Positions 37,894 to 38,352 of a DNA stretch of 64,000 nt are shown piece after piece. This DNA is from Escherichia phage T4_ev151: sequence record LR597660; one strand, given 5' to 3'. The notes under the pieces were generated by a model. It did no database searches, was not told the DNA's origin, and saw nothing but the letters and a program-made list of their open reading frames with translations. The position numbers and the translations under genes were made by a program. How positions within the stretch are numbered: position 1 is the stretch's first letter; every line of letters begins with the position of its first letter.

Positions 37894-38352
37894 TTATTTT
37901 AAATCATCTGCCCAATCGAGTTTAAGAGGCTCTTTGTATTCACGATCTAATACGACCGGAATTTGTACATCACCGCTAAATGATAAGGGTCCAACATTAT
38001 AAGACAATGTTATATGCGGTGTGTAATCATCAAAATCATGTGTAGCACCTAGTGCCCGCGCATACATGTGTCGACAGCGCAGATATTCAGAATCTAGTAC
38101 AAGTACAAGAGTCGATCCATCTTGTGTTTTCCATACTTCTAAATGTCCAGAAGAAGCTACTTCAAAACTTCCACTCGATGGAACATATGGAACATTTACT
38201 CTTGAATAACATATAGTTGAATGAATTTTTTCTCTAGGAACTGGATTAGGAACACGTAAAGAGCGCTGAAGTTCTTCCAGCGCATCAAGTGTTAATTCTG
38301 AAAACTTAGCTGCTACATAAAGACCCGTTGAAAAGTCTTTAAATTCCATCAT
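37894..38352 (-). CDS. 57B: 2H phosphoesterase gp57B (Acb1, anti-CBASS nuclease)
   Basis: 152 aa; two H-x-T motifs (HSTICYS, PHITLSY); position between ipI-locus gene and 57A. Confidence 0.75.

Follow-up and report, generated by a model that had tools for sequence, protein, structure and literature searches.

The closest described system is Acb1 of phage T4 (gp57B, NP_049750.1), the founding member of the anti-CBASS 1 proteins (Hobbs et al., Nature 2022, PMC9117128). Gene 57B was identified as encoding a 3'3'-cGAMP-degrading enzyme by activity-guided, unbiased fractionation of T4 lysate, and the recombinant protein cleaves the cyclic di- and trinucleotides used by CBASS (PMC9117128). The enzyme needs no metal, cleaves on the 3' side of adenosine and works via a cyclic-phosphate intermediate; H44, T46, H113 and T115 were named as catalytic, the H44A/H113A protein is inactive, and the roles of Y12, W74, F107, W147, E141 and the C-terminal lid were described in the same study (PMC9117128). 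During T4 infection the activity appears at about 15 min. Acb1 prevents activation of the CBASS effectors Cap5, Cap4 and CapV, and T4 delta-acb1, which grows normally without CBASS, suffers a more than 300-fold plating loss on CBASS hosts (PMC9117128). The adjacency of acb1 and ipI in T4 has likewise been pointed out as an anti-defence island, the ipI product being an inhibitor of GmrS/GmrD (PMC9117128), and each of the T4 proteins Ip1, Ip2 and Ip3 is specific for a single GmrSD variant, which it inhibits (PMC12373910).

According to a 2025 preprint, few viral 2H phosphodiesterases are as promiscuous as T4 Acb1, and deletion of the lid abolishes activity (bioRxiv 10.1101/2025.08.21.671373). 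The enzyme also degrades 2'3'-c-di-AMP, so that its overexpression can set off the Panoptes decoy system (bioRxiv 10.1101/2025.08.21.671373); deletion of acb1 in T4 leaves the Panoptes defence unchanged (PMC12657218). A related enzyme, 2H PDE-9, also cleaves 3'3'-cGAMP, but its lid is N-terminal, whereas that of Acb1 is C-terminal, and it acts poorly on 2'3'-c-di-AMP and consequently does not trigger Panoptes, as T4 Acb1 does (bioRxiv 10.1101/2025.08.21.671373). More distantly, the cellular and viral 2H phosphoesterases (LigT/ThpR and the 2'-5' oligoadenylate phosphodiesterases of eukaryotic RNA viruses) carry two H-x-T/S motifs as Acb1 does. Metal-independent acid-base catalysis via a 2',3'-cyclic phosphate is established chemistry for this superfamily, Acb1 included. 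The substrates differ: RNA ends or 2'-5' oligoadenylate for LigT/ThpR and the viral 2'-5' phosphodiesterases, and 3'-5' cyclic oligonucleotides for Acb1.

The acb1 reading frame and its product

The DNA analysed here (the window) is a 64,000-nucleotide stretch of Escherichia phage T4_ev151 (LR597660). According to the open reading frame listing of the window, a frame of 152 codons plus stop with an ATG start lies on the minus strand at exactly 37894..38352; this frame, its identity to T4 and its match to PF23474 define the acb1 (gene 57B) coding sequence. A scan of the translation, with the DNA checked by eye, recovers only two H-x-[TS] motifs. The first, H44-S45-T46 (CAT TCA ACT), is encoded at 38215..38223 and the second, H113-I114-T115 (CAT ATA ACA), at 38008..38016, both on the minus strand. 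Their contexts, KIHSTICY and TPHITLSY, are 69 residues apart, which agrees with the pattern of the 2H phosphoesterase superfamily (a pair of H-x-T/S motifs that are separated by about 70 residues and each preceded by a hydrophobic stretch). The four residues H44, T46, H113 and T115, which are those named as catalytic in PMC9117128, do not vary across nine aligned homologues, the most distant of which has 27% identity. Furthermore, Y12, W74, F107, E141, W147 and the lid are all present at their published positions. The lid itself, residues 145-152 (LDWADDLK, including W147), is encoded at 37897..37920 on the minus strand and is identical to that of T4. Thus none of the published catalytic and substrate-binding residues is missing. 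The first-pass annotation had described a 152-residue protein with two H-x-T motifs in the 2H arrangement, and its coordinates, length and motifs are all correct against the frame listing and the DNA.

The alignment to T4 gp57B that the same annotation had proposed gives 100% protein identity over all 152 residues (NP_049750.1; T4 X03016), and several other Tequatroviruses encode the identical protein. Over the 459 nucleotides of the gene, three differences from the T4 reference (NC_000866) are found, all of them synonymous G-to-A changes, with no non-synonymous change. As judged from its sequence, the product is therefore the same polypeptide as T4 Acb1 and more than a mere homologue. The source genome, on the other hand, is a different mosaic Tequatrovirus, a relative of T4 rather than T4 itself; its best database matches over 24 kb reach 90-92% coverage at 95-97% identity.

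Family assignment leads to the same protein. The Pfam profile PF23474 ('Anti-CBASS protein Acb1') is matched over positions 1-144 of 144 with an E value of 2.7e-60 and 202.7 bits, compared with a cut-off of 27, and PHROG 755 is matched with an E value of 5e-68; NCBIfam returned no match to the product. A tblastn search against 50,697 phage records found homologues in 1471 of them, with at least 99% identity in 445. The crystal structure of Erwinia phage FBB1 Acb1 (PDB 7t26/7t27) is recovered with an E value of 4e-62, both HxT motifs being aligned column for column, so the expectation of the first-pass annotation that the catalytic histidines adopt the 2H arrangement is borne out. Since the Pfam, PHROG, PDB and tblastn matches are all strong, the frame at 37894..38352 is not a chance one.

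The FBB1 protein (7T26, apo; 7T27, with 3'3'-cGAMP) is an orthologue from another phage genus and is about 68% identical to the product over 141 residues. Approximately one third of the residues differ, none of them in the catalytic tetrad, and the two proteins have the HxT/HxT tetrad and the C-terminal lid with W147 in common. An AlphaFold2 model calculated from the single sequence reached a mean pLDDT of only 37.9 and a pTM of 0.30; this model is unusable. The compact 2H fold is instead inferred from homology to 7T26, at a level of identity that is normally sufficient. The structures of 2H PDE-9 (PDB 9Q2G/9Q2Y), deposited under the name 'Anti-CBASS protein Acb1', have the 2H core in common and match the Acb1 profile with an E value of 1.5e-13, while their single-sequence match to the product is weak (E 0.004).

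Two side observations concern the start of the gene and the wider family. The frame opens with two tandem ATG codons (38347..38352, minus strand). In phage e11/2 (L001, about 4580) the first of these is ATA, so that its acb1 must begin at the second ATG and encode 151 residues; the X03016 annotation of the product likewise has 151 residues. The conserved start may consequently be M2, sharing one base with the stop codon of 57A (TGATG or TAATG). Separately, the portal protein of cyanophage Pam3 is hit at its C-terminal end (PDB 8hds chain A, residues 496-611, E 2e-8) by a profile of Acb1 homologues, with HVT and HIS motifs aligned to the two catalytic motifs of Acb1. This alignment suggests that the Pam3 portal protein carries a fused Acb1-like 2H domain, and such a domain might be virion-associated.

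Gene order and expression signals

On the minus strand, the genes follow one another in the order gene 3, gene 1, 57A, acb1, internal-protein gene, trna.4, trna.3, trna.2 and tRNA cluster, which is the order of T4. Directly upstream of acb1 lies gene 57A, encoding the tail-fibre chaperone (76 residues; 38349..38579, minus strand; Pfam GP57, E 4.3e-51; 74 of 75 residues identical to T4 gp57A). Its TGA stop overlaps the ATG of acb1 (ATGA). In T4, acb1 occupies the same place downstream of 57A, with the same overlap. Gene 1 (dNMP kinase; 38579..39304, minus strand), assigned from its reading frame and synteny, is directly upstream of 57A. The placement of the gene in the 57B position, which had been claimed beforehand, is accordingly sound, as the upstream frame is gp57A and is preceded by gene 1 and gene 3 as in T4. 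As a separate detail, gp57A comprises 76 residues here and 80 in T4; the two are 99% identical over 75 residues, and the sole difference is a shorter acidic C-terminal tail.

Among Straboviridae and related phages, the 3-1-57A-57B block is kept in Tequatrovirus, Krischvirus, Tulanevirus, Lazarusvirus, Pseudotevenvirus, Muldoonvirus and a large Vibrio phage, and the genes downstream of 57B are different each time. The position of 57B directly downstream of 57A is a typical trait of Acb1 and not a strictly defining one.

A promoter-like site directly upstream of acb1 was sought and not found; the middle- and late-type consensus sites all lie at a greater distance, either inside gene 1 or ahead of it. 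A pattern match identifies a MotA-box middle-promoter-like site (TGCTTCA-N-TATAAT; 39353..39328, minus strand) shortly before gene 1, a candidate promoter of a 1-57A-acb1 transcript. The late-promoter consensus TATAAATA occurs within gene 1 at 38935..38942 on the minus strand, 363 nt ahead of the start of 57A, and in T4 the same element is found upstream at the same offset. It is a candidate late promoter for 57A-acb1, and its position would fit the appearance of Acb1 activity about 15 min into T4 infection. Downstream, between the acb1 stop and the internal-protein gene, a sigma-70/T4-early-type promoter-like site (TTTACA-17-TACTAT with TG) is located at 37880..37852 on the minus strand. T4 has the same promoter-like element after the acb1 stop, and an alignment shows its -35 and -10 hexamers to be conserved in both T4 and e11/2. 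On its 3' side, the acb1 unit probably ends at this site. Taking into account the ATGA overlap and the middle- and late-type sites upstream, acb1 is likely co-transcribed and translationally coupled with 57A.

Across the window, MotA-like patterns (TGCTTNA, 11-13 nt, TANNNT) number 11, compared with 4.9 expected, a count reached in none of 100 shuffles. Nine of them lie on the minus strand, the one from which the genes between 29 and 41 kb of the window are read; further examples are found at 36659..36635 and 38837..38814 (both minus strand).

The internal-protein neighbour and the tRNA cluster

Beyond the acb1 stop, after 78 nt, starts a gene for an Ip6-like internal (injected head) protein of 77 residues beginning with MKTYQEFIAEA (37582..37815, minus strand), which matches PHROG 8111 ('internal virion protein') with an E value of 1.8e-50. 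It is named 'Ip6' in the annotation of e11/2 and is carried by 245 phage records, and its N-terminus is a capsid-targeting-type sequence. At this point the locus differs from T4, in which the gene downstream of acb1 is ipI. T4 IPI was considered as the identity of the neighbour and rejected, the likeness being confined to the first ~16 residues, that is, to the capsid-targeting signal (BLASTP E 0.011). The internal protein next to acb1, at least, thus belongs to a different family from the T4 Ips.

The first-pass annotation had also proposed that the two genes form a compact counter-defence neighbourhood. The adjacency to an internal-protein gene holds, while a defence-related role of the Ip6-like neighbour is a reasonable analogy with T4 Ip1-3; because this neighbour is Ip6-like and not T4 ipI, the term counter-defence neighbourhood is itself used here by analogy. 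On that analogy, it is possible, though we would lean against it, that the Ip6-like protein in the ipI slot is an injected inhibitor of an unidentified GmrSD-type (type IV) variant or of another defence.

Two further frames on the minus strand begin with the capsid-targeting-type signal MKT[YF]xEF. One encodes 157 residues (29185..29658) and lies beside denV. The other encodes 187 residues (33655..34218), matches PHROG 2280 (annotated as function unknown) and, in the order of transcription, directly precedes tRNA-Arg. From these N-termini, the phage appears to encode three candidate injected internal proteins, the Ip6-like one included.

The Rfam scan of the whole window returned seven tRNAs only, with no match in or beside acb1. 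The tRNA cluster contains a 210-residue HNH homing-endonuclease frame (35944..36576, minus strand; PHROG 14736, E 6e-124), with junctions at ~35938 and ~36580. This frame occupies the exact site of tRNA-Gln in T4 and e11/2, leaving the first ~8 nt of that tRNA, and is followed directly by tRNA-Leu. Because tRNA-Gln is reduced to these ~8 nt by the HNH frame, seven tRNAs rather than eight are present. The same arrangement is shared by 63 phage records, among them ACG-C40, HY03, slur03 and Lutter. A GIY-YIG-type homing endonuclease of 221 residues (34733..35398, minus strand) separates tRNA-Arg from tRNA-Met at the place where T4 has segB, so the cluster houses two different homing endonucleases.

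Acb1 function, alternative readings and significance

Since the sequences are identical, the literature on T4 Acb1 applies directly to the protein of this phage. The frame is almost certainly acb1 (57B) of a T4-like Tequatrovirus, encoding a metal-independent anti-CBASS 2H phosphodiesterase, and the sequence provides no argument against this identity. The earlier claim that the gene product degrades the cyclic-oligonucleotide signals of CBASS is thereby upheld, given a protein identical to that of T4 and the published cleavage and in vivo protection (PMC9117128).

By analogy with T4, the protein would act after infection by binding the messengers made by CD-NTases, namely 3'3'-cGAMP, cUA, cAAA and cAAG, at least one adenosine being required. 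Y12, W74, F107 and W147 would stack on the bases and E141 would read the adenine N6, while the C-terminal lid (145-152) would close over the ligand. The H44/T46/H113/T115 tetrad would then catalyse the attack of the adenosine 2'-OH on the 3'-5' phosphodiester, giving a 2',3'-cyclic phosphate intermediate and finally a linear 3'-phosphate. With the signal destroyed, Cap5, Cap4 and CapV would not be activated, and abortive infection would be expected to fail.

A different role is implied by the database names, as both PHROG 755 and RefSeq records label this family 'RNA ligase'. Read literally, the protein would primarily be an RNA-repair or RNA-processing 2H enzyme, a LigT/ThpR-like 2'-5' RNA ligase or RNA 2',3'-cyclic phosphodiesterase, which might serve the adjacent tRNA cluster. 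The tRNA genes do lie ~2 kb from acb1, and in the course of Acb1 catalysis, too, a 2',3'-cyclic phosphate is formed and then hydrolysed. The label, however, stems from automated name transfer and not from experiment. The product does show a match to 2_5_RNA_ligase2 (PF13563; E 0.11), but it is weak, reaching only 13 bits, compared with a cut-off of 27, over the partial stretch 81-123; LigT-type similarity thus remains below the family threshold. Nor is there an NCBIfam match to sustain an RNA-enzyme assignment, and the PDB profile search returned Acb1-type proteins only, with no LigT/ThpR or CPDase structure. The 'RNA ligase'/LigT identity is rejected on the basis of the subthreshold Pfam score and the lack of LigT structures among the PDB profile matches. 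Moreover, the activity to which unbiased fractionation of T4 lysate led was cleavage of cyclic oligonucleotides, and T4 delta-acb1 grows normally when CBASS is absent. A primary role in RNA metabolism is thus largely refuted, and we regard it as very improbable.

Even less credible, in our estimation, is that acb1 has little practical effect in this phage, either because Acb2-like factors make it redundant or because Panoptes-type decoys turn it into a liability. T4 does encode Acb2 as well, and overexpressed T4 Acb1 activates Panoptes via degradation of 2'3'-c-di-AMP (bioRxiv 10.1101/2025.08.21.671373). Redundancy is nevertheless difficult to reconcile with the more than 300-fold impairment of T4 delta-acb1 on CBASS hosts, which occurs despite acb2, and the liability with the finding that deleting acb1 did not alter the Panoptes defence against T4. 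In this phage, the protein is fully conserved relative to T4, the DNA changes being exclusively synonymous. The identity of at least 99% in 445 records, together with detection in 1471, indicates strong purifying selection on acb1. No support was found for a pseudogene or for diverged specificity of this copy. An anti-CBASS phosphodiesterase stands as the preferred reading.

The gene, its function and the idea of an anti-defence island are already in the literature, and nothing new is found here in these respects. Because the protein is identical to the T4 protein, which is characterised through its biochemistry, the structure of an orthologue and genetics, this copy of acb1 adds nothing to what is known of the enzyme. 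The practical value of the result is one of annotation: the gene should be named acb1, or anti-CBASS phosphodiesterase, and not 'RNA ligase' as in many database records. No viral enzyme had been shown before Acb1 to overcome CBASS by destroying its signal; Acb1 is a parallel to the poxins of animal viruses and, when overexpressed from a plasmid, can also trigger decoy-nucleotide systems such as Panoptes. If the Ip6-like protein is an anti-restriction protein, the acb1-ip junction would represent a fixed anchor beside a swappable anti-restriction cassette.
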